From assembly GCF_048403405.1 (NCBI RefSeq), contig NZ_CP183136.1: a DNA stretch of 64,000 nucleotides; one strand, given 5' to 3'. The position numbers and the translations under genes are program-made. The notes under the pieces were generated by a model that saw only the letters and a program-made list of their open reading frames with translations, made no database searches and was not told the origin of the DNA. The number at the start of each line of letters is the position of its first letter. Within the stretch, counting starts at the first letter, position 1. Positions 495-64,000 of the stretch are shown here, piece by piece. The stretch comes from Escherichia coli. GTDB taxonomy: Bacteria; Pseudomonadota; Gammaproteobacteria; Enterobacterales; Enterobacteriaceae.

Positions 495-584
495 CCGGTA
501 TTTGACAATGTCTATAAGATTAATTGTTCTGCACACTGTTAATTTGCGGAAAGTGATTTCTTCGTGGTCGGAAGCCGGATGCCT

Positions 585-1031: not shown

Positions 1032-1089
1032 TTTTCCACCTCTGGTGACTTTATCCGTAAATAATTTAACCCACTCCACAAAAAGGCTC

Positions 1090-8588: not shown

Positions 8589-8747
8589 GTCAGTCGCAGA
8601 ACATAGTGATTTAATTCCGGATGAACATGAGTGGATATTCAGAAAACAGAAATCTTTGTATATGCGCCGGGAAATGGCGCGTTAATTACAGGTATTCCCT
8701 TCATGGCTACCGCATTTCTCGCTTTATTTTTCAACTAAGGAATTCAT

Positions 8748-27155: not shown

Positions 27156-30100
27156 TGTTGAGTTTCAGCGTTGGTTAAATCGGCAGGCAGTGCCGGAAAC
27201 TATTACACCGACAAGGATAATTACTATGTGCTGGGCAGCATGGGAGAACGCTGGGCTGGTCAGGGGGGCTGAACAGCTTGGGACTGCAGGGCAGCGTCGA
27301 TAAGGATGTTTTTACCCGTCTTCTGGAGGGCAGGCTGCCGGACGGAGCGGATTTAAGCCGCATGCAGGATGGCAGTAATAAGCATCGTCCCGGCTACGAC
27401 CTGACCTTCTCCGCCCCCAAAAGTGTCTCCATGATGGCCATGCTCGGGGGCGATAAACGCCTGATTGATGCACATAACCAGGCCGTGGATTTTGCTGTCC
27501 GTCAGGTGGAGGCGCTGGCTTCCACACGGGTGATGACGGACGGACAGTCAGAAACGGTGCTGACCGGTAATCTGGTGATGGCACTGTTTAACCATGACAC
27601 CAGTCGCGATCAGGACCCACAGTTACACACGCATGTAGTGGTGGCTAATGTCACGCAGCATAACGGCGAGTGGAAGACACTGAGCAGTGACAAAGTGGGG
27701 AAAACCGGATTTATCCGAGAACGTGCTACGCGAACCGGATTGCGTTCGGGAAGATCTATCAGAGTGAGTTACTGTCAGCGCAGGTTGAGGCGCTGGGTTA
27801 TGAAACCGAAGTGGTCGGTAAGCACGGTATGTGGGAGATGCCGGGCGTACCGGTGGAGGCCTTTTCCAGTCGTTCACAGGCTATCAGGGAGGCCGTCGGT
27901 GAAGACGCCTCGCTGAAATCCCGGGATGTGGCGGCACTGGATACGCGAAAATCCAAACAGCACGTCGATCCGGAAATCAGAATGGCTGAATGGATGCAGA
28001 CGCTGAAGGAAACCGGGTTCGACATCCGGGCATATCGTGACGCGGCGGATCAGCGTGCGGAGACCCGCACGCAGGCGCCCGGGGCTGTTTCACAGGAGGG
28101 GCCGGATGTGCAGCAGGCGGTGACACAGGCCATTGCCGGATTAAGTGAACGAAAAGTGCAGTTTACGTACACGGACGTGCTGGCCAGAACGGTCGGTATA
28201 CTGCCGCCGGAAAATGGTGTGATTGAACGGGCACGCGCCGGTATCGATGAGGCCATCAGTCGTGAGCAGCTTATCCCCCTCGACCGTGAGAAGGGGCTGT
28301 TCACATCAGGAATTCATGTGCTCGATGAGCTGTCCGTCCGGGCACTCAGTCGTGACATCATGAAACAGAACCGGGTGACCGTACATCCGGAGAAAAGTGT
28401 CCCCCGGACGGCTGGTTACAGCGATGCGGTCAGTGTTCTGGCACAGGACCGTCCGTCGCTGGCCATTGTGTCCGGGCAGGGCGGTGCAGCCGGGCAGCGT
28501 GAGCGGGTGGCTGAACTGGTCATGATGGCCCGGGAGCAGGGGCGGGAGGTGCAGATTATCGCTGCTGACCGTCGCTCGCAGATGAACCTGAAGCAGGATG
28601 AACGGCTGTCCGGTGAGCTGATAACCGGACGTCGTCAGCTGCAGGAGGGCATGGTCTTCACGCCGGGCAGTACTGTTATCGTCGACCAGGGCGAAAAACT
28701 CTCCCTGAAAGAGACGTTAACCCTGCTGGACGGTGCCGCACGTCATAACGTACAGGTCCTGATAACCGACAGCGGGCAGCGAACCGGTACAGGCAGTGCG
28801 CTGATGGCCATGAAGGATGCCGGGGTGAACACGTATCGCTGGCAGGGCGGAGAACAGCGACCGGCAACCATCATCAGTGAACCGGACCGGAATGTCCGCT
28901 ATGACCGGCTGGCCGGAGATTTTGCGGCCAGCGTGAAAGCCGGAGAAGAGAGCGTGGCACAGGTCAGCGGGGTACGGGAACAGGCCATACTGACACAGGC
29001 CATTCGCAGTGAGCTGAAAACACAGGGCGTGCTCGGACACCCGGAGGTGACCATGACCGCCCTGTCACCGGTCTGGCTGGACAGCCGGAGCCGTTATCTG
29101 CGGGATATGTACCGACCGGGGATGGTGATGGAGCAGTGGAACCCGGAGACACGCAGTCATGACCGCTATGTTATCGACCGGGTGACGGCGCAGAGTCACA
29201 GCCTGACCCTGCGGGATGCGCAGGGCGAAACGCAGGTGGTGCGTATTTCCTCCCTGGACAGCAGCTGGTCGCTGTTCCGGCCGGAAAAAATGCCGGTGGC
29301 AGACGGCGAGCGACTGAGGGTGACAGGGAAAATTCCCGGACTCCGCGTCTCCGGCGGTGACCGCCTGCAGGTGGCATCCGTCAGTGAAGATGCGATGACG
29401 GTTGTTGTGCCGGGGCGGGCTGAACCGGCCACCCTGCCTGTGGCTGATTCACCGTTCACGGCACTGAAGCTGGAGAACGGCTGGGTGGAAACGCCCGGGC
29501 ATTCCGTCAGTGACAGTGCGACGGTGTTTGCCTCCGTCACACAGATGGCAATGGACAACGCCACCCTGAACGGTCTGGCCCGCAGCGGTCGTGATGTCCG
29601 GCTGTATTCCTCACTGGATGAAACCCGTACTGCGGAAAAACTTGCCCGCCATCCCTCCTTTACGGTGGTTTCTGAGCAGATAAAGGCGCGGGCCGGTGAG
29701 ACATCGCTGGAAACCGCTATCAGTCTGCAGAAAACCGGGCTGCACACGCCGGCACAGCAGGCCATTCATCTGGCCCTTCCTGTGCTGGAAAGTAAAAACC
29801 TGGCCTTCAGCATGGTGGACCTGCTGACAGAGGCGAAGTCGTTTGCTGCAGAAGGAACCGGTTTTACTGAACTGGGAGGGGAAATCAATGCGCAGATAAA
29901 ACGCGGTGACTTACTGTATGTGGATGTGGCAAAAGGCTATGGCACAGGCCTGCTGGTTTCTCGTGCGTCGTATGAGGCAGAAAAAAGTATTCTTCGCCAT
30001 ATTCTCGAAGGTAAGGAGGCGGTCACGCCGCTGATGGAGAGAGTACCCGGCGAACTCATGGAGACGTTAACGTCGGGACAGCGTGCCGCCACCCGTATGA

Positions 30101-34781: not shown

Positions 34782-35353
34782 AAAAGCCTCCTTCACACTA
34801 AAGGAGGCGGAAAAATAAGGCTTCTCTGAAACCTTCTTCCATACCCGGCAGAAGAAGGTTATAAAAATTTATAACACATTCACCGGCCTGGATTAAAGGG
34901 GGAAGGAAAATGAACGGAACAGGGCGTGATTCGCAAAACTCCGGGGTATGGCGCTACCGGCAGGTCGGACGCCGGGCTGTCCGGCTGGAAGTCAGGGGGA
35001 CTGGCCGGGAGCCGCTGAGGCATGGCTACGGGCTGCGCAGTCTGCTCCCCGGACAGACTGGCAGCAGTTTGCCCGAAAAAGGGCTGAACACTGCCACCGG
35101 CGCTGCCGGGGAAGGGTGTAACGAAAAAGCAGCCTTCATTACTCCAGGGATTCAGAAGGCTGAATAATGCATGAGATTTGCTTTTTTTAATATCCGGTCG
35201 GAAAGTATGACCGGACAGTTCTGAGTAGCACAGAGTTTTTTCCATATTAAGTCGTGATTTTATATTTTGTGATTAATTTCACAAAATAAGGTGTTATTCA
35301 GTGTGTGCTGCGATATTCAGGATTACCTGAAATACAGGTGCCATTTATCTGAT

Positions 35354-37269: not shown

Positions 37270-37390
37270 TGTGGCTGGCCACGCCGTAAGGTGGCAGGGA
37301 ACTGGTTCTGATGTGGATTTACAGGAGCCAGAAAAGTGAAAACCCCGATAATCTTCAGCAAGTTTGGCGACTAAGAAGAAGATTAACGGG
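37270..37390 (-). ncRNA. copA: CopA antisense RNA region (approximate)
   Basis: Position between copB and tap on the opposite strand as in R1/R100; ends not determined. Confidence 0.35.
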
Positions 37391-37442
37391 GCTAACAAGA
37401 AACCGCATAGAAGCTGTTGCTCTATGCGGGGAGTATAGTTAT

Positions 37443-48851: not shown

Positions 48852-49205
48852 TTAGTTTATTAACTTCATCGCATTCTTTTTTGTCTCCTCATCACTTTTT
48901 TGCTCCGATTGTGAAGAGGACTGAATGATTGTTGAAGAATTTAAATCGGCCATCTCTTTTGGAAATAGCGATCTCAATATATTCACGATATCTGAAAATG
49001 TGGTTTCTTTCGTCAGCAGTTCACATAAAAGGAAAGGGGCCCTGGGATCTTGTCTGTATAAGGCCAGACCTGCCGTCAGTGCAGCCCGGTTAAGGCGGCT
49101 GCGTTCCCCTTGCGGGATACTGTCCAGTGTATCACAAACAATTTTATCTGTTTGATTTACATCTGGATTTAGCTTAAAGGCAATGGTTCTGCGCTTGTCC
49201 ATCAT
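48852..49205 (-). CDS. parR: ParR (StbB), partition adaptor/repressor
   Basis: 117-aa ORF matching R1-type ParR; directly downstream of parM. Confidence 0.9.
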   Translation of the reverse strand: MMDKRRTIAFKLNPDVNQTDKIVCDTLDSIPQGERSRLNRAALTAGLALYRQDPRAPFLLCELLTKETTFSDIVNILRSLFPKEMADLNSSTIIQSSSQSEQKSDEETKKNAMKLIN

Positions 49206-50167
49206 TAATTACCTATGAGATACATACCGTTAACTAAATCATATTGAGAGTTATTGGTTTTAAAAAAACGTTCATCACGAATCTGTGTGTGTTTTTTTAC
49301 TGCATCGCATATTAATTCTGCGCCACCACCTATAACCATAACATGAGTATAACCAGAAAATTCATTGAGTGTATTTAATACACGTTGCTCAAGTTTACGA
49401 AGTGCTTCATTCATTGCTTCGGTGACTATTGATATTTTGTTCTCATCATTAATTCGTTGCTTCAGATAGTTATTATCTTTTCTGTGAATAATTATATCAT
49501 CAGCAAGATAGCTACTTCCTTTTGTTCTCGCAAGAGAAAGGGCATCTTTTACTGCAGATGTGACCAGAGATACACCAAGAGATGAGTCTCCGTATATTTT
49601 ACTGATCCCCGATAATTTCCCCATTACCTGAGAAATATCTAATGTGGTGCCCCCGAGATCTATAATTAATAAAGAATCTAACTCATCCAGTTCTTGTAGA
49701 ACTTCATAACCTGCCGGTATAGATTCAGGCATGACTTTTACATCTTTTATTGTGAATGTATCCCCACCATTTAATGTAATTTTTTTCCGGAAGTTTGCTT
49801 TCTTACGCTCAATATTTTCCGTATTGGGTTGGTTATTCCTGTCGTAATACTCTGTCAGAGGAAGTGTGCAAACAATATCCACTTCGCTTACCGGCAGACC
49901 ACTGGTCAGTAAGGCGTGGTGCACCGCAACGACATTAACGTCGCTGTATTGCCATGCGATATTGGTTGTGACTACAGCATCCGGGCTGATTGGATCAAAT
50001 GAATACTGTTCGCCGTTCAGTGTGTAGTTAAAGACCTTTTTATCACCAAAAGAAACTGCCCACTCGCGTTTGAAGCTGTTCGGGCTAATGTGCTGTTTAA
50101 TTGTTCCGTCGCTTTCCTGCCACTGTAGTTTGATGTTTGTTGAACCGTCATCAATGAATACCAACAT
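49205..50167 (-). CDS. parM: ParM (StbA), actin-like partition ATPase
   Basis: 320-aa ORF matching R1-type ParM. Confidence 0.95.
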
Positions 50168-50335
50168 TTATAAAACTCCTTATGGTGTTTTTTTGGTGTT
50201 TGTTTGGGTGTGTTTTGGGCTTTAAATGGGTTTATTTGTCAAGTTTACCCCATTTTAACTATCAATCAATGATTATTTGTCTTGTTTTGGTGTTTTGTTG
50301 GGCTTGGTATGGGTTGTTTTTGGGTTTTGTTTGGC
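50168..50335. promoter_or_regulatory. parC: parC-like centromere/promoter region
   Basis: Clustered short direct repeats (GGTGTTTT/GGGTGTGTTTTGG-type) upstream of parM; boundaries approximate. Confidence 0.55.
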
Positions 50336-50347
50336 GGATAACAAAAG

Positions 50348-50660
50348 ATGTCGCCGGGCTCCTCTTTTTACTGCGCCGGCTGACGCGGCGCGGCATAAAC
50401 GCTGCCTGTGGTCAGTGTCCCGCGTCCGGTGGGCACGGGACGGGCGCTTTTACCGCTCCCGGCTGGCGTCGGTGACAGTGTACGCCAGCCTGTCGCCCTT
50501 TTCTGATGAACGCCCTTCAAGCCGCTTTCGCGGCATAGCCTTGCCGTCAGAAAGACGACGGCTGCGGTATTCCACGGTCGGCCTGACCCGTTACCGGACG
50601 CGGTGAACAGCCCACAGGCAGCGGGGAACGGGCGCCACAGGGGCGCCCTCCCGATGCTCC
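50348..50660 (+). repeat. Large repeat, family A copy 1 (about 315 bp, GC-rich, structured); candidate Frpo-type single-strand promoter
   Basis: Near-identical to 51652-51970; ORF-track entries 50277-50606 and 51567-51911 are the same sequence translated. Confidence 0.7.
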
Positions 50661-50661
50661 T

Positions 50662-51603
50662 GTGAGGATAATTCCCATGCCAAACTGGTGCTCGAATCGT
50701 ATGTATTTTTCTGGTGAACCGGCACAGATCGCTGAGATTAAACGACTGGCCAGCGGTGCAGTCACACCGCTTTATCGCCGCGCCACAAATGAAGGTATTC
50801 AGCTGTTTCTGGCCGGAAGTGCCGGACTTCTGCAGATCACTGAAAATATCCGCTCTGAGCAGTGCCCCGGAGTGACGGCTGCCGGACGTGGTGCTGTATC
50901 ACTGGAAAATATCGCGTTCACCCGCTGGCTGACACACCTGCAGAACGGTGTACTGCTGGATGAGCAAAACTGCCTGATGCTGCATGAACTCTGGCTGCAG
51001 AGCGGTACTGGACAGCGTCGCTGGGAAGGGTTACCGGATGATGTCAGGGAAACTATCACTGTGCATTTCACCGCAAAAAGAGGTGACTGGTGTGACATCT
51101 GGGGTAACGAGGATGTATCGGTGTGGTGGAACCGTCTGTGTGACAACGTACTGCCGGAAAAAACCATGCCGTTTGACCTGCTGACGGTTTTGCCGACCCG
51201 CCTGGATATTGAAGTGAATGGCTTTAACGGCGGTGTTCTGAACGGTGTTCCTTCTGCATATCACTGGTATACAGAACGGTATGGCGTGAAGTGGCCTTGT
51301 GGGTATGACCTGAATATCAGCAGTCAGGGGGAAAACTTCATTCAGGTGGATTTCGACACGCCGTGGTGTCAGCCGGAAAGCGACGTTGTTGCAGAATTAA
51401 GCCGCCGTTTCGGCTGCACGCTGGAGCACTGGTACGCCGAACAGGGCTGCAATTTCTGTGGCTGGCAGTTGTATGAGCGCGGAGAGCTTGTTGATGTGCT
51501 GTGGGGGGAACTGGAATGGTCTTCCCCGACAGATGACGATGAGCTGCCGGAAGTCACCGGACCTGCGTGGATAGTCGACAATGTGACGCATTATGGCGGA
51601 TGA
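50662..51603 (+). CDS. Hypothetical leading-region protein, 313 aa (possibly DUF1281-like)
   Basis: Clean ORF between the two family-A repeat copies; family name from recall only. Confidence 0.55.
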   Translation: MRIIPMPNWCSNRMYFSGEPAQIAEIKRLASGAVTPLYRRATNEGIQLFLAGSAGLLQITENIRSEQCPGVTAAGRGAVSLENIAFTRWLTHLQNGVLLDEQNCLMLHELWLQSGTGQRRWEGLPDDVRETITVHFTAKRGDWCDIWGNEDVSVWWNRLCDNVLPEKTMPFDLLTVLPTRLDIEVNGFNGGVLNGVPSAYHWYTERYGVKWPCGYDLNISSQGENFIQVDFDTPWCQPESDVVAELSRRFGCTLEHWYAEQGCNFCGWQLYERGELVDVLWGELEWSSPTDDDELPEVTGPAWIVDNVTHYGG

Positions 51604-51651
51604 AGTATGACGGAGACGGGCGGGCAACCGCCCGTTTCTTTTCCGACAAAG

Positions 51652-51970
51652 GATGTCGCCGTGCTCCTCTTTTTACTGCGCCGGCTGACGCGGCGCGGCA
51701 TAAACGCTGCCTGTGGTCAGTGTCCCGCGTCCGGCGGGCACGGGGCGGGCGCTTTTACCGCTCCCGGCTGGCGTCGGTGACAGTGTACGCCAGCCCGTCG
51801 CCCTTTTCTGATGAACGCCCTTCAAGCCGCTTTCGCGGCATAACCTTGCCGTCAAAAAGACGACGGCTGCGGTATTCCACGGTCGGCCTGACCCGTTACC
51901 GGACGCGGTGAACAGCCCACAGGCAGCGGGGAACGGGCACCACAGGGGTGCCCTCCCGGTGCCCTCTGTA
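51652..51970 (+). repeat. Large repeat, family A copy 2; candidate single-strand promoter upstream of the methyltransferase operon
   Basis: Near-identical to 50348-50660. Confidence 0.7.
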
Positions 51971-51986
51971 AGAGAAGGAGTTTCGT

Positions 51987-52670
51987 ATGTCCCGTTTTGT
52001 CCTCGGTAACTGCATCGATGTTATGGCCCGTATTCCTGATAACGCCATTGATTTCATCCTCACCGACCCGCCATATCTCGTCGGTTTCCGTGACCGTTCC
52101 GGGCGCACCATCGCCGGCGATAAAACCGATGAGTGGCTGCAACCGGCCTGTAATGAAATGTTCCGCGTGCTGAAAAAAGACGCGTTAATGGTGAGCTTCT
52201 ACGGCTGGAACCGCGTCGATCGCTTTATGGCCGCCTGGAAAAATGCGGGATTCAGCGTTGTTGGTCACCTGGTCTTCACCAAAAACTATACATCGAAGGC
52301 CGCATATGTGGGCTATCGCCACGAATGCGCCTACATCCTGGCAAAAGGCCGTCCACGTCTGCCACAAAACCCGCTGCCGGACGTGCTGGGCTGGAAATAT
52401 TCGGGCAATCGCCATCACCCGACGGAAAAGCCCGTTACCAGCCTGCAACCGCTGATTGAGAGCTTCACACACCCGAACGCAATTGTGCTGGACCCGTTTG
52501 CAGGCAGCGGCTCAACCTGCGTCGCCGCCCTCCAGTCCGGACGCCGGTATATCGGTATCGAGCTGCTTGAGCAGTATCACCGTGCCGGGCAGCAACGCCT
52601 TGCCGCCGTGCAACGGGCCATGCAGCAGGGGGCCGCGAATGATAACTGGTTTATGCCGGAGGCTGCGTAA
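51987..52670 (+). CDS. Orphan DNA amino-methyltransferase (N6-adenine or N4-cytosine)
   Basis: DPPY catalytic motif followed by FAGSGST AdoMet motif; no adjacent restriction endonuclease ORF. Confidence 0.85.
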   Translation: MSRFVLGNCIDVMARIPDNAIDFILTDPPYLVGFRDRSGRTIAGDKTDEWLQPACNEMFRVLKKDALMVSFYGWNRVDRFMAAWKNAGFSVVGHLVFTKNYTSKAAYVGYRHECAYILAKGRPRLPQNPLPDVLGWKYSGNRHHPTEKPVTSLQPLIESFTHPNAIVLDPFAGSGSTCVAALQSGRRYIGIELLEQYHRAGQQRLAAVQRAMQQGAANDNWFMPEAA

Positions 52671-52892
52671 ATGAACTATGCAGGACACGAAAAACTGCGC
52701 GCCGAAGTGGCGGAGGTGGCCAATGCCATGTGCGACCTGCGTACAACCATGAATGAGATGGAGCAGCGGTACAGCTTTAATGCCGACACCCTGCCGGAAC
52801 GTCTGGTGCGTCAGACGCTGTTTCGCGCAAACCGCCTCCTGATGGAGGCATATACCGAAATTCTGGAACTGGATGCGTGCTTTAAAGATTGA
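52671..52892 (+). CDS. Hypothetical small protein
   Basis: 73-aa ORF immediately after the methyltransferase gene. Confidence 0.5.
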   Translation: MNYAGHEKLRAEVAEVANAMCDLRTTMNEMEQRYSFNADTLPERLVRQTLFRANRLLMEAYTEILELDACFKD

Positions 52893-52905
52893 GAAGGAGA
52901 CGAGA

Positions 52906-53340
52906 ATGTACGGAACATGCGAAACGCTATGCCGGGAGCTGGCAGTAAAGTATCCGGGAGACATGCCGCTGATGCTGGTTATCTGGTCCCCGGAAGAGAT
53001 TCAGGCCCTCGCTGACGGAATGGATATTTCCCTGTCCGATCATGAAATCAGAACCGTCCTGGCGCGCCTGGAGGACATCCCGGAAGACCAGCGGACTGAA
53101 TCCGGTATTTCTTCCGGCGTGGCGATGGAGATCATCAATAACGTGAGCGAAAACCGCCAGGTGACCGTCCCTGCTGAACTGCTGGCGTCCCTGATTCAGA
53201 CCGCTGAACAGGCATTGTGGAAACGTGAATGGGCCGCCCGGGATCATGGCCTCGCCGTCCCGGAATGCGTCACCCGCCGTCAGGCGGTGATTAATCAGGC
53301 CCGCACCCTGCTGAAAAACAACAGACACGAAAACGACTGA
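52906..53340 (+). CDS. Hypothetical protein (DUF1380-like), paralogue of 55048-55467
   Basis: Shares MY.T..E...E and RQVTVPA motifs with the paralogue; start chosen at the MYGTCETL methionine. Confidence 0.55.
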   Translation: MYGTCETLCRELAVKYPGDMPLMLVIWSPEEIQALADGMDISLSDHEIRTVLARLEDIPEDQRTESGISSGVAMEIINNVSENRQVTVPAELLASLIQTAEQALWKREWAARDHGLAVPECVTRRQAVINQARTLLKNNRHEND

Positions 53341-53385
53341 TGTTATCGCCGCCTCCGGGCGGCGATTCAGGGAGAACGATTAATC

Positions 53386-54162
53386 ATGAACGAAAACACA
53401 ACGCTGAACGCACTGATTTGTCGCCACGCCCGTAACCTGCTGCTGGCGCAGGGCTGGCCGGAAGAGACGGATGTTGACCAGCGAAATCCGAACCATCCGG
53501 GCTGGATCAGCATTTACGTGCGGCTGGATGCGCCCCGGCTGGCGACGTTACTTATCAACCGTCACGGCGGCGTACTGCCGCCGGTCCTGGCGTCTGCCAT
53601 GCAAAAACTGACCGGAACCGTGGCGGAACTTGTACTGTCCGGCAGCCAGTGGCAGGCGCTGCCGGTACTTCCGGCAGACGGAACGCAGGTGTTTTTCCCG
53701 TATGCCGGTGAATGGCTGACGGAGGAAGAAATCAGGGCAGTTCTTGATGCGGTGCGCAATGCAGTACGAAGCATCTGTTACCAGGTGGCAGACGATGCGC
53801 GGCGTATCCGGGCGGCGCTGACCACCACCGGTCAGACGTTGCTGACCCGGCAGACGCGCCGCTTTCGTCTGGTTGTGAAGGAAAGCGATTACCCCTGCTG
53901 GCTTGATGAAGATGACGAAAATCTGCCCGTGGTGCTCGATGCCATTCTGAACCGTGGCGCCCGTTTTTCCTCTGTGGAAATGTACCTGGTCTGTGAGTGT
54001 GTGGAGCATATCCTGGCCAGTGGTCTGGTCTGTGATGTGCTGCGTATACCGGATGAACCGTCCCGTCGCTGGTTTGACAGGGATATTCTGCGGGAGGTTG
54101 TTCTGGAGGCACGGGATGAAATCCGCAGCATGGCGGATGCACTGGCGAAAATCAGGGGCTGA
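53386..54162 (+). CDS. Hypothetical leading-region protein, 258 aa
   Basis: Clean ORF in the same-strand array. Confidence 0.5.
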
Positions 54163-54575
54163 TGATGGCGGGGAAAATCCCCGCCTTTTTCCTGCCGGTC
54201 CCCGGACAGAGCACAAAGGAAGTCGCCGCCGGCTCCGCTTTACCCGGCCATGCGGGGCATGGCCTTGTGGGGGTTCAGTTATGTGGCCTCAGCGTCGTGT
54301 GCGGGCTGTGCCGTGCCTCCATCGTAGCCGGGCTTCTGCGGGCGGGTTGCAAGGTAAGGTGAACCGCTGCGGTCACCCGGTCCCTCCTTCCCGTCTGCCG
54401 TGATTTTCCGGTCGTTCACCCGCTCAGATTTCGCGGTCTCACCCTCCAACTCCCGCCAGCCGTGTGCGTCAGGCTGCGGCTTCCCTTGCGCCCTTGCAAC
54501 CCTGCAGGCCCGGCAAAGATGGAGGCACGGCACCGCCCGGTGTCGCGGAATATGTGAACAACGGAGGAAAACATC

Positions 54576-55001
54576 ATGCAATATGCGAAACCTGTCACTC
54601 TGAACGTTGAAGAGTGTGACCGTCTCTCCTTTCTGCCTTACCTGTTTGGCAACGATTTTCTGTATGCCGAGGCGTATGTGTACGCGCTGGCGCAAAAAAT
54701 GATGCCGGAATATCAGGGAGGCTTCTGGCATTTCATCCGCCTGCCGGACGGTGGCGGTTACATGATGCCGGATGGCGACCGTTTTCATCTGGTCAACGGT
54801 GAAAACTGGTTTGACCGCACTGTGAGTGCTGATGCCGCAGGTATCATCCTGACTTCCCTTGTGATTAACCGCCAGTTGTGGCTGTACCACGACAGCGGGG
54901 ATGCGGGACTGACACACCTTTACCGGATGCGCGATGCGCAGTTGTGGCGTCACATCGAATTTCACCCCGAATGCAATGCGATTTACGCGGCACTGGACTG
55001 A
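54576..55001 (+). CDS. Antirestriction protein of the ArdB/KlcA family (likely)
   Basis: 141-aa ORF with size and sequence character of KlcA-type proteins; family from recall only. Confidence 0.6.
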
Positions 55002-55047
55002 TTAACGGACGGGGCGGCGATGCCGCCCCTGTAAAGGAGACGAGAAC

Positions 55048-55467
55048 ATGTACTGTACTGTTAAAGAAATTATCCGCGAAGTGCTGGATACAGACGTGCC
55101 GGACAGTGAATGCGTTTTTGCCGTGGTGCTGACCCGTGGGGATGTGCGTCACATAGCCCAGGACTGGAGTCTGACAGACGATGAGCTGGAAACCGTCATG
55201 CAGCGGCTGGACGATGCCTTTGAGCATGGTGCTGATGTCAGCATTGTTCACGACGTTGTTTGTGAACTGATGGAAGAAAAGCGCGCCAGCCGTCAGGTGA
55301 CAGTCCCGGCGGTGATGCTGGAAAAAGTGATGGCGCTGGCAGGCAGTGAAATGAAGCGCCTGTATGCCGTCGGGAGTGAGAACGGGGGCGACGGTGACGC
55401 ATTTGTCAGGGAAGAACGTGAGATTATGCGGGTGATGCGTCAGGCGCTGGACGGGGAGAATGGGTAA
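55048..55467 (+). CDS. Hypothetical protein (DUF1380-like), paralogue of 52906-53340
   Basis: 139-aa ORF sharing motifs with the paralogue. Confidence 0.55.
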   Translation: MYCTVKEIIREVLDTDVPDSECVFAVVLTRGDVRHIAQDWSLTDDELETVMQRLDDAFEHGADVSIVHDVVCELMEEKRASRQVTVPAVMLEKVMALAGSEMKRLYAVGSENGGDGDAFVREEREIMRVMRQALDGENG

Positions 55468-55658
55468 TGAATATCAGCAAGGAAACCCGCGAAATTCTGC
55501 GTAATTACAGGGCCGTGATTAATGCGCGGCGTCGTGAAATGGGGCAGAAACCGCTCACCACCGCGCAGATTGTTGATGAAATATGTGATTTTGTGGTGAA
55601 TCAGCAGGCTGTTTTCCTCGGTGGTCACTACATCCTTCAGGGCAGCAGGCACAGGTGA
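55467..55658 (+). CDS. Hypothetical small protein
   Basis: 63-aa ORF overlapping the upstream stop codon. Confidence 0.4.
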   Translation: MNISKETREILRNYRAVINARRREMGQKPLTTAQIVDEICDFVVNQQAVFLGGHYILQGSRHR

Positions 55659-55789
55659 TACAGGGCAGGCGGTGGAGGCCGCCTGTCAGCCCGCGCGAAA
55701 ACCCCTGGCAGGCTGGCGCCTGCCGGAAGGGAAGCGGGCCACGCTGGCGCGTCGCCCGTTACCCTTCCCGTTTGTGATGTGTCCGGAAT

Positions 55790-56395
55790 GTTTTTTCCTG
55801 ATGTTATGTTTCTGTGGTTACTGTTCTTCTTCTTCCTCTTCTTTCCGTTCCTCTCCTGTTTATGCCTTTTCCGGGCGTCCCCCTGGCGGGGCGGGCTGTC
55901 GTGAACGGAGCCAGCGGAGCTGTCTCCGCCCTGGCGGGCTTCCATCCCTGACGCAAAACCCCGGGTTTGCAGCGACCGGAACGGTCGCGCCACCCCTGTC
56001 GCGCCGTGGCCTGCGCTCCCGGCATCCCGGCAAAAAGACGCCGGGATGTAAGGAGCAACGCCGTTTCGCAAACCGCGCTTCACGTCGTTGCAGCGGGTCC
56101 CTGCTCATTGCCTGCCGGGTGCCACACACCCGTATGAGTCCCTGTCGCCGGGGGCTGATACAGCCACAACCTGCCGCACTGACTGTCCAGGGTAAATGAA
56201 CAGCCCACAAAATTTTTTACCCAAAACCCGGTAAAAAATTTTGCGTTCTGCCCAGGACAGGTGCGTCAGGCCGTGGCAGTGATGCCCCTTGCGGCGAAGG
56301 TTCTCAAACGGGTGAAGTTCATACCACAGGGAATACAGCAGCAGGTTCCCGCGAAACGTCAAAACCGCGGCTCCCGAAACTCAACGGGTGATGTT
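55790..56395 (+). repeat. Large repeat, family B copy 1 (about 600 bp); Frpo-type single-strand promoter candidate
   Basis: Long near-identity with 59040-59695, including hairpin CAAAATTTTTTACCC..GGGTAAAAAATTTTG. Confidence 0.7.
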
Positions 56396-56625
56396 CTTTA
56401 AAAATCAGGATTTATTTCAGGCTCCGGCAATACGCATTTATGTGTTCTGTCAGTCATCCGGCTGGCAGGTAATGAAAACGCAGGAACAGAAGGAGGAAAA
56501 CACCGGAAAGCGTCAGATGCAGATATGAAAAAAAGCAGGTCAGGGACCTGCTTAATCCACGCCGTAAGAATTGTGCGACCAATTTTGACGGCATTGTTAA
56601 CCAATTTGTCATAAGGAATCCATTT

Positions 56626-56856
56626 ATGACTGTAAGCATTGTTTCACCTTCCGCAGCGGCTGTAAAGCCCCGCCGTCATCCCCGTTTCAGACGCGAAGAC
56701 ATCCCCGCGCCGGAACTTGACCCCGTGCTGAAAGCCTTCGGGCGACACATTGCCCGGAGTTTTCGCCGGGGGCGTGGTGTACACATCCCCGCCATGAAAA
56801 ACACGGCCTTCGGGCAGGTGCTCCGCACACTCGAACTGAAACGCGCTTTTAACTGA
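56626..56856 (+). CDS. Hypothetical small basic protein
   Basis: 76-aa ORF, first after the family-B repeat. Confidence 0.4.
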   Translation: MTVSIVSPSAAAVKPRRHPRFRREDIPAPELDPVLKAFGRHIARSFRRGRGVHIPAMKNTAFGQVLRTLELKRAFN

Positions 56857-56907
56857 TGAGGTGAGCCGCCCCGCGAGGGGCGGCAACAGACGGAAGGAGA
56901 ACATTTT

Positions 56908-58269
56908 ATGACATTAGCAGCAATCACCATGACCGCCCCGGAAGCCGCCAGCCCGGTGCAGATGTACCGCGCGACCTACTCACCGGATGACAACAAACTG
57001 CGCCTGTATGCCGTGTCACGTCTTGACCCGGAGACGTATAAAAAAGTGCATGATGCCGGTTTTCGCTGGGCACCAGAACAGGCGCTGTTTGTGGCTCCAG
57101 CCTGGACACCGGGCCGGGAAGACGTGCTCCTCTCACTTGCCGGAGAGATTGAGGATGAAGACAGCACGCTCGCTGAACGTCAGGAAGCACGGGCGGAGCG
57201 GTTTACCGGATACAGCGGAAAGCGGGCCAGTGAATCCGCACAGGCACTTGATGAAGTGGAAAGACTGGCCGCGATGATCCCGCCCGGTCAGCCCATTCTT
57301 GTGGGGCATCACAGCGAACGCCGCGCCCGTCGTGATGCGCAGCGTATTGAAAACGGCATGAAACGTGCCGTGATGCTCTTTGAACGTGCGGAATACTGGG
57401 AAGAACGTGCGCGGTCGGCACTGCTTCACGCGAAGTATAAAGAACGTCCGGACGTTCGCTGGCGTCGTATCAAAAAAATCGAAGCTGATTTGCGCAAGGC
57501 TGAAAAGACCATCGCACAGTCGCAGAAATATCTGACGATGTGGCGGGCTGAATCGCTGGATCTGAATATGGCAAAACTCATCAGCAGTCATGACCATATC
57601 AGCGCCTGTTTCCCGCTGGATACGTATCCGCGCCCGGCAGAAAAAAGCCAGTATGAAGGAAGTCGATCGTTATGGTCGGCCCTGGATGATGACATCATCA
57701 CCACGGAGCAGGCCCGCGAAATTGCGATCCGCTGTCATGAACGGCAGATTCAGCATCAGCAACGCTGGGTTAACCACTATCAGAACCGCCTGATCTATGA
57801 GCGTGCCATGCTGGACGAAAGCGGCGGCGTGGTTACCCGGACACAGGATTTTGAGCCGGGCGGACAGGTTTTCAGCCGGGGCGAGTGGCTGACCATCATC
57901 CGCGTGAACAAAAGCAACGGGGCGGTGAGTTCAGTCACAACGCCGAATTACAGTTTTCTCGGGTACAGCGGCACGATGAAAGTGACGCCCGATCGCATCA
58001 CGGACTACAAAGCACCATCGGCAGAAGAGGCTGCCGTCGCCAGCCAGGCCGCGAAGCGTCCGCCGGTAGTCAACTATCCGGGGGAAGGTTTCCGGGAAAT
58101 GACAAAGGCGCAGTGGGCCGCCCTGCCCCGGGACTGTAAGGCCGTGCGCAGTGTGGCAGAGACAGAAGACCACGGGGCATACCGCTACCGCCGCACAATG
58201 GACAATAATTTCCGCCTGGTGAATGTGTATATCACCGACATGAAAATCACGGAAATCCCGCAGAAATAA
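56908..58269 (+). CDS. Hypothetical leading-region protein, 453 aa
   Basis: Clean ORF with coiled-coil-like central region; no domain recognised. Confidence 0.55.
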   Translation: MTLAAITMTAPEAASPVQMYRATYSPDDNKLRLYAVSRLDPETYKKVHDAGFRWAPEQALFVAPAWTPGREDVLLSLAGEIEDEDSTLAERQEARAERFTGYSGKRASESAQALDEVERLAAMIPPGQPILVGHHSERRARRDAQRIENGMKRAVMLFERAEYWEERARSALLHAKYKERPDVRWRRIKKIEADLRKAEKTIAQSQKYLTMWRAESLDLNMAKLISSHDHISACFPLDTYPRPAEKSQYEGSRSLWSALDDDIITTEQAREIAIRCHERQIQHQQRWVNHYQNRLIYERAMLDESGGVVTRTQDFEPGGQVFSRGEWLTIIRVNKSNGAVSSVTTPNYSFLGYSGTMKVTPDRITDYKAPSAEEAAVASQAAKRPPVVNYPGEGFREMTKAQWAALPRDCKAVRSVAETEDHGAYRYRRTMDNNFRLVNVYITDMKITEIPQK

Positions 58270-58315
58270 GGTATATCCCCCCGGGAAATCCCCGGGGGAT
58301 GACGGAGATAATGAT

Positions 58316-58879
58316 ATGCACAGTCAGTTAAAAGAACGTATCCGGCTGATGCGCGCAAGGCTGGATAACGCCGCGCCGGTTGCTGAAATCCGGGCTGAAT
58401 CTCAGCTTTTTGTGACTCCTGCCCCGGTCTGTGATCGCCTGGTGACGCTGGCGGAGATCAGCAACCGTGATCACATTCTGGAACCCTCTGCCGGCACCGG
58501 GGCCATACTGCGGGCGATTCGTCATGTCGCGCCGGGGGCCATGTGTGATGCGGTGGAGATTAACAGCGGGCTGGTCCGGTATCTGCGGGATAATTTTAAC
58601 GGTGTCAGGGTTCAGTGTGGCGACTTCATGGAATGGCAGCCGGTGCAGTATTACAGCCGGATTATCATGAATCCGCCGTTCAGTCACGGGCAGGATATCC
58701 GGCATATCCTGCGGGCTTTTTCCCTGTTGCGTCCGGGTGGTGTGCTGGTTGCCGTCTGTCTGAACGGGCCGCGCCAGCAGGAGAAGCTGTTACCGTTTTC
58801 TGATGTCCGCGAGGTGCTGCCGTGCGGCACATTTGCTTATACCCGTGTTCCGACGATGATTATTCGTCTGCGTGCCTGA
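58316..58879 (+). CDS. Small orphan AdoMet-dependent methyltransferase (probable DNA amino-methyltransferase)
   Basis: EPSAGTG AdoMet motif and NPPF catalytic motif; no adjacent endonuclease. Confidence 0.75.
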   Translation: MHSQLKERIRLMRARLDNAAPVAEIRAESQLFVTPAPVCDRLVTLAEISNRDHILEPSAGTGAILRAIRHVAPGAMCDAVEINSGLVRYLRDNFNGVRVQCGDFMEWQPVQYYSRIIMNPPFSHGQDIRHILRAFSLLRPGGVLVAVCLNGPRQQEKLLPFSDVREVLPCGTFAYTRVPTMIIRLRA

Positions 58880-59039
58880 TGACTCCGGGCAGGCGGGAGG
58901 ATAAATGCCCGTCTGCCCGCGCCGGGAAAAGACCGCGCGCCGGTGGCGCTGAAAGGGGCCGCGCTTACGCGCCGCCCCTTTCATTACGCGGACGTTCTGC
59001 TGTGGGCTTCTGTCTTTTCAGACCTGTCATTTGCTTGTT

Positions 59040-59695
59040 ACTGATGATGTTGTTGTTCCTGCTACTGCTACTGCTACTGCTACTGCTACTGCTACTGCTA
59101 CTGCTACTGCTACTGTTCTTCTTTTTTCTGCTGCTCTGATTACTGTCTGTTTTGTTGTTCTCCTGCTTATGCCTTTTCCGGGCGTCCCCCTGGCGGGGCG
59201 GGCTGTCGTGAACGGAGCCAGCGGAGCTGTCTCCGCCCTGGCGGGCTTCCATCCCTGACGCAAAAACCCGGGTTTGCAGCGACCGGAACGGTCGCGCCAC
59301 CCTTGTCGCGCCGTGGCCTGCGCTCCCGGCATCCCGGCAAAAGACGCCGGGATGTAAGGAGCAACGCCGTTTCGCAAACCGCGCTTCACGTCGTTGCGGC
59401 GGGTCCCTGCCCGTTGTTCTGTCCGGTGCCATTCACCTGTTTAAGCCCCTGTCGCCGGGGGCATAGACAGCCACAACCTGCCGCACTGACTGTCCAGGGT
59501 AAATGAACAGCCCACAAAATTTTTTACCCAAAACCCGGTAAAAAATTTTGCGTTCTGCCCAGGACAGGTGCGTCAGGCCGTGGCAGTGATGCCCCATGCG
59601 GCGAAGGTTCTCAAACAGGTGATGGTGAATACCGGAGGGAACAAAAGGCAGGTCCCCGCAAAACGTCAAAACCGCGGCTCCCGAAACTCAACAGA
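59040..59695 (+). repeat. Large repeat, family B copy 2, upstream of ssb; Frpo-type single-strand promoter candidate
   Basis: Near-identical to 55790-56395 apart from the hexanucleotide tract and a short variable segment. Confidence 0.7.
59059..59115 (+). repeat. Hexanucleotide microsatellite (CTGCTA), about 9.5 units
   Basis: Read directly; absent from the paralogous repeat copy, which has an irregular pyrimidine tract instead. Confidence 0.9.
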
Positions 59696-59733
59696 TGATG
59701 GGGGCTGAAAACATCAACAGAAGGAGACACATC

Positions 59734-60261
59734 ATGGCAGTTCGTGGCATTAACAAGGTCATTCTTGTCGGTCGTCTGGGAAAAGATCCGGAAGTCCGTT
59801 ACATCCCCAACGGGGGCGCAGTGGCAAACCTGCAGGTGGCCACGTCAGAAACCTGGCGCGACAAACAGACGGGGGAAATGAAGGAGCAGACGGAATGGCA
59901 CCGCGTGGTGCTGTTCGGCAAGCTCGCGGAAGTGGCAGGTGAATATCTGCGTAAGGGGGCGCAGGTCTACATTGAAGGCCAGCTTCGCACCCGTAGCTGG
60001 GAAGATAACGGTATTACCCGTTACGTCACCGAAATCCTTGTTAAAACCACGGGCACCATGCAGATGCTGGGGAGTGCACCACAGCAGAACGCTCAGGTGC
60101 AACCGCAGCCTCAGCAGAATGGTCAGTCACAGAGTGCTGACGCGACGAAAAAAGGGAGCGCGAAAACGAAAGGCCGTGGACGTAAGGCTGCGCAGCCGGA
60201 GCCTCAGCCGCAACCACCGGAGGGGGAGGATTACGGGTTTTCAGACGATATCCCGTTCTGA
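59734..60261 (+). CDS. ssb: Plasmid single-stranded DNA-binding protein
   Basis: 175-aa ORF with SSB fold sequence and acidic C-terminal tail DDIPF; ATG at 59734 within ORF 59695-60261. Confidence 0.95.
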
Positions 60262-60279
60262 CTGGCCTGACTGTGATAA

Positions 60280-60552
<273 letters not shown>

Positions 60553-60612
60553 GAGAGGTGCCGGACGGGGATCACGTCCGGCAGACATTAACTACACAAT
60601 AAGGGGATAGTC

Positions 60613-62577
60613 ATGTCAGTAACAAAGTCTGAACCAAAATCTACCCGTAAAGCAAGCCGTAAACCTGCAAAAACGCAGGAAACTGTCCTGTCTGCCCTGC
60701 TGGCGCAGACGGAGGAAGTGAGCGTGCCGCTGGCCTCGCTGATTAAGTCACCACTGAATGTGCGCACGGTGCCGTATTCTGCGGAGTCCGTCAGCGAACT
60801 GGCTGATTCCATTAAGGGGGTCGGCCTGCTGCAGAATCTGGTTGTTCATGCCCTGCCAGGTGACCGCCACGGTGTCGCCGCAGGTGGTCGCCGACTGGCA
60901 GCACTCAACATGCTGGCAGAGCGTGGCATCATTCCGGCTGACTGGCCTGTCCGCGTGAAAATTATTCCGCAGGAACTGGCGACGGCCGCATCGATGACCG
61001 AGAACGGTCATCGTCGGGATATGCACCCAGCCGAACAGATTGCCGGATTCTGTGCAATGGCGCAGGAAGGCAAAACACCTGCACAAATCGGTGATTTGCT
61101 GGGCTATTCACCCCGCCACGTTCAGCGAATGCTGAAACTGGCTGACCTTGCGCCTGTCATCCTCGATGCGCTGGCAGAAGACCTCATCACCACCGAGCAC
61201 TGTCAGGCGCTGGCGCTGGAGAACGACACCGCGCGTCAGGTGCAGGTGTTTGAAGCCGCCTGTCAGTCGGGATGGGGCGGTAAACCGGAAGTACAGACCA
61301 TTCGTCGTCTGGTGACCGAAAGTGAAGTGGCGGTGGCAGGGAACAGTAAATTCCGCTTCGTGGGGGCTGATGCCTTCTCGCCAGATGAACTGCGCACTGA
61401 CCTGTTCAGCGACGACGAGGGTGGCTATGTGGACTGCGTGGCGCTCGATGCCGCCCTGCTGGAAAAACTCCAGGCTGTTGCTGAACACCTTCGGGAAGCC
61501 GAAGGCTGGGGATGGTGCGCCGGACGCATGGAGCCTGTCGGTGAGTGCCGTGAGGATGCCGGAACATACCGCTGTCTGCCGGAGCCGGAAGCGGTGCTGA
61601 CGGAGGCGGAAGAAGAACGTCTGAACGAACTGATGACGCGTTACGACGCGCTGGAAAACCAGTGTGAGGAATCTGACCTGCTGGAAGCAGAAATGAAGCT
61701 GATGCGCTGCATGGCGAAGGTCAGGGCGTGGACGCCGGAGATGCGTGCCGGAAGCGGTGTGGTGGTGTCCTGGCGTTATGGCAACGTGTGTGTCCAGCGT
61801 GGTGTGCAGTTGCGCAGCGAGGATGATGCGGCTGACGACGCTGACCGCACGGAACAGGTGCAGGAGAAAGCGCCCGTGGAGGAAATCAGTCTGCCACTGC
61901 TGACGAAAATGTCTTCCGAACGCACGCTGGCAGTCCAGGCAGCACTGATGCAGCAACCGGACAAATCTCTGTCACTGCTGGCATGGACGCTCTGCCTGAA
62001 TGTGTTTGGCAGCGGAGCGTACAGTAAACCAGCACAAATCAGCCTGGAATGTAAACATTATTCGCTGACCAGCGATGCGCCATCGGGGAAGGACGGTGCC
62101 GCATTCCTGGCGCTGATGGCAGAAAAAGCCCGTCTTGCAGCCCTGTTACCGGAGGGATGGTCACGGGATATGACGACATTCCTGTCACTCAGCCAGGAGG
62201 TACTGTTATCCCTGCTCAGTTTCTGCACCGCGTGCAGCATCCACGGCGTTCAGACCCGCGAGCATGGTCACACGTCACGCAGTCCGCTGGACTCGCTGGA
62301 GAGCGCTATCGGATTCCACATGCGCGACTGGTGGCAGCCGACGAAAGCAAACTTCTTCGGACACCTGCAAAAGCCGCAGATTATCGATGCCCTGAATGAT
62401 GCCGGACTGTCCGGTGCTGCGCGGGACGCGGAGAAAATGAAGAAAGGCGATGCCGCTGAACATGCAGAGTTCCACATGAAAGACAACCGCTGGGTGCCTG
62501 GCTGGATGTGTACACCACGTCCACAGGCAGAGACGGAAACCACGGAGTACCGTGACGACCAGGCAGAAGCCGCCTGA
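60613..62577 (+). CDS. ParB-like nuclease-domain protein of the leading region
   Basis: 654-aa ORF with N-terminal ParB/Srx-like region; conserved position between ssb and psiB. Confidence 0.8.
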
Positions 62578-62645
62578 CCGCCAGTCATAAACCATTTATC
62601 ACGCCGCCCTGCCGGAGACGGGGCGGCAGCAAGGGAGATACCGTG

Positions 62646-63080
62646 ATGAAAACTGAACTGACCCTGAATGTATTACAGACCATGAGCGCACAGGAATATG
62701 AAGATATCCGGGCTGCCGGAAGTGATGAACGTCGTGAACTCACACATGCCGTGATGCGGGAGCTGGATGCGCCGGATAACTGGACGATGAACGGCGAGTA
62801 TGGCAGCGAGTTCGGCGGCTTTTTCCCCGTCCAGGTCCGTTTCACGCCTGCCCACGAACGTTTTCACCTGGCGTTATGTTCACCGGGCGATGTCTCTCAG
62901 GTCTGGGTGCTGGTTCTGGTGAATGCCGGTGGTGAGCCGTTTGCGGTGGTTCAGGTACAGCGGCGGTTTGCACCGGAAGCCGTCAGCCATTCACTGGCAC
63001 TGGCGGCGTCACTGGACGCGCAGGGGTACAGCGTCAGTGACATCATCCATATCCTGATGGCGGAAGGAGGTCAGGCATGA
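62646..63080 (+). CDS. psiB: PsiB, plasmid SOS-inhibition protein
   Basis: Translation [12 protein letters not shown]... matches PsiB; ATG at 62646. Confidence 0.95.
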
Positions 63081-63796
63081 GCGCACGTTCACAGGCACTG
63101 GTTCCCCTCAGCGCAGAGCAACAGGCCGCATGGCGGGCGGTGGCGGAGACAGAAAAACGCCGCCACCAGGGAAACACGCTGGCGGAATATCCGTATGCGG
63201 GGGCGTTTTTCCGCTGTCTGAACGGAAGCCGCAGGATATCGCTGTCTGACCTGCGATTTTTCATGCCGTCCCTGACCGCAGAAGAACTGCGCGGCAACCG
63301 TTCTCAGTGGCTGTATGCCGTCGATGTGCTGATTGAAACTCAGGGCGAGGTCTGCCTTCTTCCCCTTCCCGGCGATGCAGCAGAGCGGCTGTTCCCGTCG
63401 GTGCGGTTCCGTGTCAGGGAGCGCAGTCGCCACAAATCCGCACTGGTCATGCAAAAGTACAGCCGCCAGCAGGCGAGGGAGGCAGAGCAGAAAGCCCGTG
63501 CGTACCAGGCGCTGGTCGCTCAGGCTGAAATCGAACTGGCATTCCATTCGCCGGAAACAGTCGGAAGCTGGCATGCCCGCTGGAGTGACCGGGTGGCAGA
63601 GCATGACCTGGAAACCCTGTTCTGGCAGTGGGGTGAGCGTTTTCCGTCACTGGCCGGAATGGAACGCTGGCAGTGGCAGGATATGCCGTTCTGGCAGGTT
63701 ATTGCGGAAGCCAGTCTTGCAGCAAGAGAGGCCGGTCACGCTGTCCGTGAGATGGAGCGGTGGATGGTGCCGAACAAACTCCGGGAGGCGGCGTGA
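63077..63796 (+). CDS. psiA: PsiA
   Basis: 239-aa ORF overlapping the psiB stop; matches PsiA. Confidence 0.95.
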
Positions 63797-63799
63797 TGC

Positions 63800-64000
63800 G
63801 GCAACAATCACACAGATTACCCGTAAACAGCCTGAATGAGCGGGTTATTTTCAGGAAAAGTGAGTGTGGTCAGCGTGCAGGTATATGGGCTATGATGTGC
63901 CCGGCGCTTGAGGCTTTCTGCCTCATGACGTGAAGGTGGTTTGTTACCGTGTTGTGTGGCAGAAAGAAGATAGCCCCGTAGTAAGTTAATTTTCATTAAC
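63800..64000. other. 5' part of a hok/sok-type (flm) post-segregational killing locus, cut by the window end
   Basis: Sequence after psiA matches the upstream/leader part of hok/sok loci from recall (GTGCAGGTATATGGGCTATGATGTGCCCGGCGCTTGAGGCTTTCTGCCTCATGACGTGAAGG); the hok ORF lies beyond the window. Confidence 0.6.

Follow-up and report, generated by a model that had tools for sequence, protein, structure and literature searches.

Putative single-stranded DNA promoter hairpins head five co-oriented gene modules in the leading region of an F-like Escherichia coli plasmid

Between positions 50340 and 63800 of a 64,000-nt stretch of Escherichia coli DNA (contig NZ_CP183136.1; the whole stretch is hereafter the window), blocks of genes on one strand follow one another, each behind a large GC-rich repeat. 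Do these repeats act as promoters on the incoming single strand of a conjugating plasmid? A first-pass annotation of the window had left this question open, and the literature had by then answered it experimentally in near-identical elements. We found that this interval makes up most of the leading region of an F-like (IncFII/IncFIA) conjugative plasmid, a circle of about 66 kb. By sequence comparison it holds five close homologues of elements tested elsewhere as single-stranded DNA (ssDNA) promoters. We put at roughly 0.9 the probability that five such hairpins drive five early modules here. The underlying biology has already been published, between 1997 and 2026, and the locus offers no new principle.

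The published elements fall into three classes. In fresh pESBL transconjugants, six operons are strongly induced, each behind a large hairpin on the transferred strand (T strand) and each with a start mapped by 5' rapid amplification of cDNA ends (RACE) (Wen et al. 2025, PMC12672017). Class 1 comprises ssi1-3 and Frpo1-2 (ssp1a and ssp1b), class 2 the elements before klcA and ardA, and class 3 the element before M.EcoGIX; classes 2 and 3 are conserved in F (PMC12672017). The starts lie within the hairpins, and activity ends on conversion to double-stranded DNA (dsDNA) (PMC12672017, PMC9849209). Deletion of Frpo1 or Frpo2 in F abolishes early expression and protein production (Couturier 2023, PMC9849209). 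As Masai and Arai (1997) and Nasim (2004) are cited in PMC9849209 and PMC12672017, the class 1 homologues of F and ColIb-P9 support sigma-70 transcription from ssDNA and not from dsDNA. Anti-defence islands with Frpo elements have also been described, in which protection by an anti-CRISPR gene under Frpo control requires that the gene lie on the T strand of the leading region (Samuel 2024, PMC11541004). As references we used F (NC_002483.1), pESBL-EA11 and the Frpo and single-strand initiation (ssi) sequences of Supplementary Table 2 of Samuel et al. 2024.

Which strand enters the recipient was settled by the nick site of the origin of transfer (oriT):

1109-1131, minus strand: oriT nick-site motif GTAGGGTGT/GGTGCTTTTGGTGG, F/R100-type; single match, one mismatch to the R100-type motif, 0 expected by chance

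The motif lies on the same strand in F and in a close relative of the plasmid (L001). Since it is on the minus strand, the minus strand is the T strand, as the first-pass annotation had predicted, and is therefore the template of every plus-strand leading gene. The T strand runs with its 5' end first from about 1122 toward coordinate 1, round the circle to 64000 and down to 50340. The oriT had been expected simply beyond 63800; in this near-complete circular window the nick is instead at the other end of the coordinates.

Five structured elements of three families were found in the region. They are given here with the class that homology assigns to each and with the energy and z-score of a single T-strand fold:

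50341-50660, minus strand: A1 (family A), class 3 (ssp3 / M.EcoGIX-type) hairpin, extra copy; stem 50400-50430 with 50593-50623; -97.3 kcal/mol, z -7.0
51646-51986, minus strand: A2 (family A), class 3 (ssp3) hairpin in the canonical position before the M.EcoGIX-like methylase; stem 51705-51734 with 51899-51928; -102.9 kcal/mol, z -7.4
54212-54546, minus strand: C, class 2 (ssp2, "Frpo3") hairpin upstream of klcA/ardB; stem pairs 54303 with 54538; -96.0 kcal/mol, z -4.5
55807-56393, minus strand: B1 (family B), class 1 (Frpo/ssiD/ssi-type), extra copy; core hairpin pairs 56072 with 56371; core fold -99.2 kcal/mol, z -8.3
59114-59700, minus strand: B2 (family B), class 1, counterpart of F Frpo2 (ssp1b) upstream of ssb; core hairpin pairs 59369 with 59687; core fold -110.2 kcal/mol, z -11.0

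A repeat search showed the large repeats to be real and far beyond chance. The family A cores (50341-50640 and 51646-51945) are 97% identical over 300 nt, with BLAST extending their ends to about 50660 and 51986, and each copy contains an inverted repeat whose 30-31-nt arms are 83-84% complementary and 162-164 nt apart. The arms of element C are 32 nt long (54302-54333 and 54508-54539), 91% complementary and 174 nt apart. In family B, the collinear blocks 55807-56035, 56033-56110, 56112-56315 and 56341-56393 match 59114-59700 at 90-96%, and an A/T-rich inverted repeat of 21 nt occupies the centre of each copy. The first-pass annotation had placed family A correctly to within 7 nt. It had also recognized the family B repeat, at positions some 20-70 nt too early; its 59040 marks the start of a (CTGCTA)9.5 microsatellite (59059-59115). 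Its arrangement of same-strand modules behind structured repeats stands, and its count of four modules and two repeat families does not: element C, which it missed, splits the second block, giving five modules and three element families.

The T strand was scanned between 47000 and 64000 in 300-nt sliding windows with DNA folding parameters, using the threshold of -75 kcal/mol of Wen et al. It fell below this threshold only at the five elements (minima -93.5, -92.4, -87.0, -94.3 and -102.6 kcal/mol) against a background with a mean of -48.6 and a standard deviation of 13.8 kcal/mol. In the single T-strand folds, none of 100 dinucleotide shuffles folded as well for any element, so that the single-strand folding proposed as a check in the annotation came out positive, with z-scores of -4.5 to -11. 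As a positive control, the same scan of pESBL returned exactly six loci, the number reported by Wen et al. 2025, with best windows starting at 4460, 7040, 8840, 13980, 15220 and 18600. Five of the six coincide with BLAST-mapped homologues of family A, class 2 and ColIb ssi2, and the sixth (18540-18939) with a further ssi2 homologue. In classes 1 and 2 the complement of the T strand folds less well, by 4-12 kcal/mol (7-12 for B2).

The pairing itself appears to be maintained. Compensatory changes were seen at 18 of the 62 consensus pairs in class 2 (7 homologues) and at 11 of 90 in class 1 (8 homologues). Within the window, compensatory double changes distinguish B1 from B2 four times and A1 from A2 once. 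These substitutions are evidence, at the level of sequence, that the hairpin structure is under selection. The class 3 copies listed, at least 5000, are all at least 95% identical, too alike to show covariation.

Assignment to the published classes rests on alignments with the reference plasmids. A2 is 98.2% identical over 333 nt, and A1 98.4% over 314 nt, to the segment upstream of M.EcoGIX in pESBL. That segment (pESBL 4443-4775, 98% to A2; the F counterpart at 7826-8160 is 96%) ends 8 nt ahead of the gene for the 227-aa methylase M.EcoGIX, and this pESBL homologue of A2 is the class 3 ssDNA promoter with a start mapped by 5' RACE (PMC12672017). Family A had 0 matches among the Frpo/ssi references of Samuel et al. 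2024 Supplementary Table 2. Element C, taken as 54200-54575, is about 90% identical to the klcA elements of F (10380-10755) and pESBL (6998-7371), 87% to the pESBL ardA copy, and 79% (E 9e-77) to the candidate "Frpo" 4 of Samuel et al. B2 matches F ssiD/Frpo (D90178) at 88% over 355 nt (E 1.6e-123); B1 matches ssiD (D90178) at 80% over 340 nt (E 6e-78) and F Frpo2 at 93%. Even with ColIb-P9 ssi2 and ssi3, the class 1 tip region shares about 80% identity. By these comparisons family A is class 3, C is class 2 and family B is class 1, and the resemblance to Frpo/ssi promoters suggested by the first-pass annotation was borne out. Rfam offers no model for these DNA elements.

A promoter could be read most clearly in class 2, from an alignment of 7 sequences with 77% mean column identity. 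The 3' arm of the T strand carries, near the base of the stem, the -10 motif GCCCGGC-TAnnnT, in which the T, the A and the final T are invariant in all 7 homologues and the three central bases are unpaired in the consensus. Its variants are TAAGAT, TAAGGT and TACAGT, and in the window it reads TACGAT (54326->54321). Upstream lies a TTGnnn hexamer, TTGCAT in F and pESBL and TTGCAA (54352->54347) in the window. The window copy is thus predicted to use TTGCAA as -35 and TACGAT as -10, with a putative start at about 54525-54528 on the plus strand. The 3' arm would serve as non-template, the polymerase copying the 5' arm outward from that point; the resulting leader would be about 50 nt long and end in GGAGGAAAACATC-ATG at the klcA start codon (54576). 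In duplex form the corresponding -10 of F and pESBL reads TTTTAT, without the key A; this explains the single-strand specificity of class 2 in those plasmids. Compared with F (54290-54550 versus F 10470-10730), the -35/spacer segment has been replaced on both arms with pairing kept: the 5' arm reads CTGCAGGGTTGCA in place of GATAAGGCGGGGATGCA of F and pESBL, with a matching change on the 3' arm. A linear hexamer scan had missed this promoter, which the alignment revealed.

In the other two classes we could name candidates. Class 1 has TTGAGA-17-CATCAC on the 5' arm (59614->59586 in B2, 56307->56279 in B1), the -10 lying in an interior loop and not conserved in more distant homologues. We also considered a class 1 side hairpin, GGGAAC...GTTCCC on the 5' arm, that would shorten the 32-nt gap between a TTGACG and a TATnnn; it was rejected because the leftover spacing of about 11 nt is unfit. 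For class 3 the -10 candidates are TACACT (51787->51782), within a sub-hairpin's 12-nt loop, and GACACT (51724->51719), within the main stem, which is imperfect. Conservation is unable to choose between them, given the near-identity of the class 3 copies. The -35/-10-like elements that the annotation had proposed looking for in the stems were recognized in class 2 and are candidates only in classes 1 and 3.

The genes that follow the hairpins, and the associated RNA gene and terminators, are as follows:

50677-51603, plus strand: module 1, yccB (DUF1281 with ferredoxin-like C-terminal domain; PF06924 E 4.2e-45, PF18406 E 1.3e-14)
about 51618-51643: terminator-like hairpin GGGCGGGCAACCGCCCG and T-run after yccB
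51987-52670, plus strand: module 2, M.EcoGIX-like ssDNA methyltransferase (NF010253 E 1e-150; 95% amino acid identity to pESBL M.EcoGIX)
52671-52892, plus strand: module 2, open reading frame (ORF) of 73 aa (annotation of relatives)
about 52906-53340, plus strand: module 2, DUF1380 protein (annotation of relatives)
53386-54162, plus strand: module 2, ycfA-like 258-aa protein (annotation of relatives)
54167-54185: terminator-like hairpin closing module 2, ahead of element C
54576-55001, plus strand: module 3, KlcA/ArdB antirestriction protein (PF03230 E 2.8e-26; 99% identical to F YfgB)
55048-55467, plus strand: module 3, second DUF1380 protein (annotation of relatives)
55467-55658, plus strand: module 3, 63-aa ORF (annotation of relatives)
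56530-56631, minus strand: AS-pc01 antisense RNA gene (Rfam RF02875, 79.4 bits against a gathering score of 79)
56626-56856, plus strand: module 4, DUF4496 protein (annotation of relatives)
56908-58269, plus strand: module 4, DUF3560 protein ydbA (PF12083 E 1.1e-36)
58316-58879, plus strand: module 4, class I S-adenosylmethionine-dependent methyltransferase (weak Erm/KsgA-type methyltransferase matches)
59734-60261, plus strand: module 5, ssb (NF010292 E 2e-116; match from ORF residue 14; AAGGAG before ATG 59734, the true start)
about 60319-60552, plus strand: module 5, DUF905 protein
60613-62577, plus strand: module 5, ParB-like protein (TIGR00180 E 6e-15)
62643-63080, plus strand: module 5, psiB (NF010255 E 1.7e-83)
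63077-63796, plus strand: module 5, psiA (NF010258 E 5.6e-126)

Every homology-supported gene between 50677 and 63796 is on the plus strand, as had been claimed for 50662-63796, and profile matches confirmed the two methyltransferases, KlcA/ArdB, SSB, the ParB-like protein, PsiB and PsiA named in the annotation. The yccB start is ATG 50677, with GAGGA 8 nt upstream. DUF905, DUF1380, DUF1281 and DUF3560 are all among the most prevalent leading-region-enriched families of Samuel et al. 2024 (PMC11541004). By gene content, co-orientation and use of the T strand as template, the region is a typical leading-region anti-defence island, and the early-expression reading given to it at first pass is supported.

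Taken with the published work, these features suggest the following sequence of events. The relaxase would nick the minus strand at about 1122/1123, and the strand would enter the recipient 5' end first, bringing this region in early, while still single-stranded. Here five GC-rich segments, each 300-350 nt long, would fold on the incoming strand into long imperfect hairpins whose stems mimic double-stranded promoter DNA. Host sigma-70 RNA polymerase could start at these hairpins and transcribe the downstream plus-strand genes before the complementary strand exists. One class 3 element would serve yccB and the other the M.EcoGIX-like block; the class 2 element would serve the KlcA/ArdB block; and the class 1 elements would serve DUF4496/DUF3560/methyltransferase and ssb, ParB-like, psiB and psiA, respectively. 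Synthesis of the complementary strand would remove the hairpins and turn the promoters off, leaving a short burst of expression ("zygotic induction").

Several observations weigh against this account. The promoter function is carried over from elements 80-98% identical in other plasmids: activity on ssDNA, inactivity on dsDNA, the start sites, class 1 priming and the class 2 roadblock discussed below are all taken from near-identical published elements. The linear spacer of the window class 2 copy is 20 nt, five bases of it bulged, versus 15 nt in F and pESBL. The duplex equivalent of its -10, AAAGAT, still has both the key A and the key T, and this copy may therefore be less strictly single-strand-specific. 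A1 precedes yccB, which has no upstream hairpin in pESBL, where the folding scan found none before that gene. Family A folds equally well on both strands (-93.2 kcal/mol on the plus and -93.5 on the minus strand), so folding alone is silent on which strand matters for class 3. A linear T-strand scan for TTGACA, 15-19 nt and TATAAT found no canonical TTGACA-17-TATAAT in any element, the weak hits matching 7-9 of 12 positions, and the class 1 and class 3 hexamers remain candidates, not fixed.

The alternative that survives best is that the hairpins serve mainly DNA processing, as ssi priming signals or replication roadblocks, with downstream transcription a by-product. Family B is homologous to F ssiD, which, as Masai and Arai (1997) are cited in PMC7736820, was first isolated as a priming signal. 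In vivo, transcripts of the class 1 ssp1/Frpo elements prime complementary-strand synthesis, and the class 2 (ssp2) stem of F stalls that synthesis until UvrD acts, prolonging the burst (bioRxiv 10.64898/2026.01.09.698686). The window also contains a match to the second kind of F single-strand initiation signal:

337-525, minus strand: F ssiE match, 94%

A processing role, however, complements the promoter role and does not replace it. Each hairpin stands directly ahead of a ribosome-binding site and a co-oriented operon, the conserved TAnnnT of class 2 is a promoter feature, and early protein production is lost on deletion of either Frpo (PMC9849209). We consider it improbable that processing is the main function.

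Alternatively, the structures might act in mRNA, as long 5' leaders that regulate translation or stability downstream of ordinary duplex promoters. Strong folding is also seen in the plus strand, the one with the mRNA sense, and in family A it equals that of the minus strand; AS-pc01 shows RNA-level control in module 4. A duplex sigma-70 promoter scan of 49000-64000, however, gave 3 sites where 6.4 were expected, none of them on the plus strand before any module, which is in itself only a weak negative; no consensus duplex promoter stands upstream of any element on that strand, and from 50340 to 63800 the plus strand showed no consensus sigma-70 duplex site at all. The better folding of the T strand in classes 1 and 2, a good class 2 -10 in F and pESBL on the folded T strand only, and published starts inside hairpins whose activity stops at dsDNA conversion (PMC12672017, PMC9849209) make the leader explanation very unlikely. 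Equally hard to credit is the view that the repeats are inert recombination scars or mobile-element remnants marking cassette swaps, because, although cassettes between Frpo copies are indeed gained and lost (a 9.7-kb module in pO26-CRL125, PMC3817090; module 4, which F and pESBL lack), copies of the class 3 element in at least 5000 plasmids, drawn from several genera, keep 95% identity or more, stem pairing is maintained through compensatory changes, and element orientation is constant relative to oriT and to the downstream genes.

The ssDNA-promoter reading being preferred, the two extra copies deserve attention. A second family A copy was not matched in pESBL or F, which have one each; A1 precedes yccB/DUF1281 and not a methylase, and its junction with yccB occurs in at least 365 PLSDB plasmids. 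A1 is the class 3 element in duplicate, displaced from its usual place, and not a separate element. B1 heads the module 4 cassette; in F and pESBL the klcA block runs straight into ssb. Already in 2013 such cassettes were described as being gained and lost through recombination between Frpo copies (PMC3817090). AS-pc01, the only Rfam match in the region, overlaps the 5' untranslated region and start codon of the DUF4496 gene, the first of module 4, and has its own promoter-like site (56666->56638) and terminator-like site (56553->56533). Because its template is the complement of the T strand, the RNA cannot be made before conversion to dsDNA, a timing that would fit a shut-off after establishment. 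Activity of A1 and B1 is presumed from their homologues. If both are active, yccB and module 4 would be newly recruited early establishment or anti-defence genes, with AS-pc01 a second, RNA-level shut-off once the plasmid is double-stranded; we give this extension an even chance.

The family B repeat unit, about 590 nt, exceeds the 351-nt ssiD reference by about 240 nt (55807-56048 and 59114-59354). The extra segment is conserved and moderately structured (z -3.1), and contains 28-29 nt that match the end of ColIb-P9 ssi3 at about 93% identity; in pESBL the corresponding place (8440-8819) is likewise structured. Directly ahead of B2 is the perfect (CTGCTA)9.5 microsatellite mentioned above, and at the equivalent place before B1 a polypyrimidine tract (55827-55854). 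The array may vary in length, since L001 and a second relative (L002) are 24-36 nt shorter over the 14-kb match; gene coordinates suggest that the difference is located before ssb. "Hypothetical protein" ORFs annotated by PGAP in relatives overlap family A (about 50295-50606 and 51600-51911, plus strand), and minus-strand ORFs lie inside C and B2. All of these, the few exceptions to the common gene orientation included, are probably spurious, as they sit wholly within structured non-coding repeats.

Matches to the 14-kb stretch are found in at least 5000 PLSDB plasmids, most of them conjugative and chiefly from Escherichia, Klebsiella, Salmonella and Shigella. The closest are 98.7-98.9% identical over the full length, and the two examined were typed IncFIA/IncFII and MOBF. 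Further landmarks lie outside the leading genes, the RNA features among them assigned by Rfam:

1927-2038: traJ 5' untranslated region and FinP
21167-21255: AS-traG antisense RNA
30012-30088: AS-traI antisense RNA
35018-35201: AS-pc02 antisense RNA
37334-37425: CopA (IncFII replicon)
49205-50167, minus strand: parM

The placement of traJ/FinP, the three antisense RNAs and CopA shows the window to be almost the entire circular plasmid. Comparison with L001 indicates that about 2.2 kb of the circle is absent between 64000 and 1; the corresponding L001 segment carries the remainder of hok/mok, a third family B copy, ygeA and the first part of a DUF932/945 gene. In relatives 98.7% identical, that third copy (L001 20490-21083) falls just beyond the window, and a sixth module is thereby predicted in the missing segment. 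From the nick to parC the island would extend over roughly 1.1 + 2.2 + 13.7 kb. The ssiE match is about 600 nt inside the leading end from the nick and adjoins a lytic transglycosylase gene (ORF 585-1124, minus strand). The stretch between parM and the A1 hairpin (50174-50338) carries 11-bp GT-rich iterons in two arrays, at 50184-50219 and 50282-50334. These are consistent with the parC centromere of an R1/R100-type parMRC system, which A1 abuts. In relatives, a microcin B17 operon lies just ahead of parMR.

With single-strand promoters, the anti-restriction, methylase, SSB and SOS-inhibitor genes would be expressed before the host attacks or reacts, and such early expression helps explain the efficient establishment of resistance plasmids. 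The window is a clean annotated example of a very common backbone, found in at least 5000 PLSDB plasmids, and offers two modest leads: the class 3 copy before yccB and the Frpo-led cassette with its antisense RNA.

Set beside the known systems, the locus is largely familiar. Compared with F Frpo/ssiD and ColIb-P9 ssi1-3, the class 1 elements share 80-93% identity to F, a hairpin of about 330 nt, an A/T-rich tip and the T-strand orientation, and B2 keeps the position of Frpo2 before ssb; they differ in number, with three copies in this lineage (the third outside the window) and two in F, and in that B1 heads a DUF4496/DUF3560/methyltransferase cassette absent from F and pESBL. The class 2 element shares with those of F and pESBL about 90% identity, a downstream KlcA/ArdB gene (99% to F YfgB) and the same hairpin with a mismatched TAnnnT near its base. 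It differs in having TACGAT with two mismatches where theirs is TAAGAT with three, and in its longer spacer, 20 versus 15 nt. In class 3, A2 is 98% identical to the pESBL element and likewise precedes a methylase, 95% identical to M.EcoGIX, whereas the second copy here stands before yccB/DUF1281, adjoining parC. The only local particulars are thus this second class 3 copy and the extra Frpo-led cassette. With the leading-region anti-defence islands of Samuel et al. 2024 the region shares co-oriented genes near oriT with Frpo-type elements ahead of them, and a content of antirestriction protein, orphan methyltransferases, SSB and PsiB/PsiA, and nothing material sets it apart from them.

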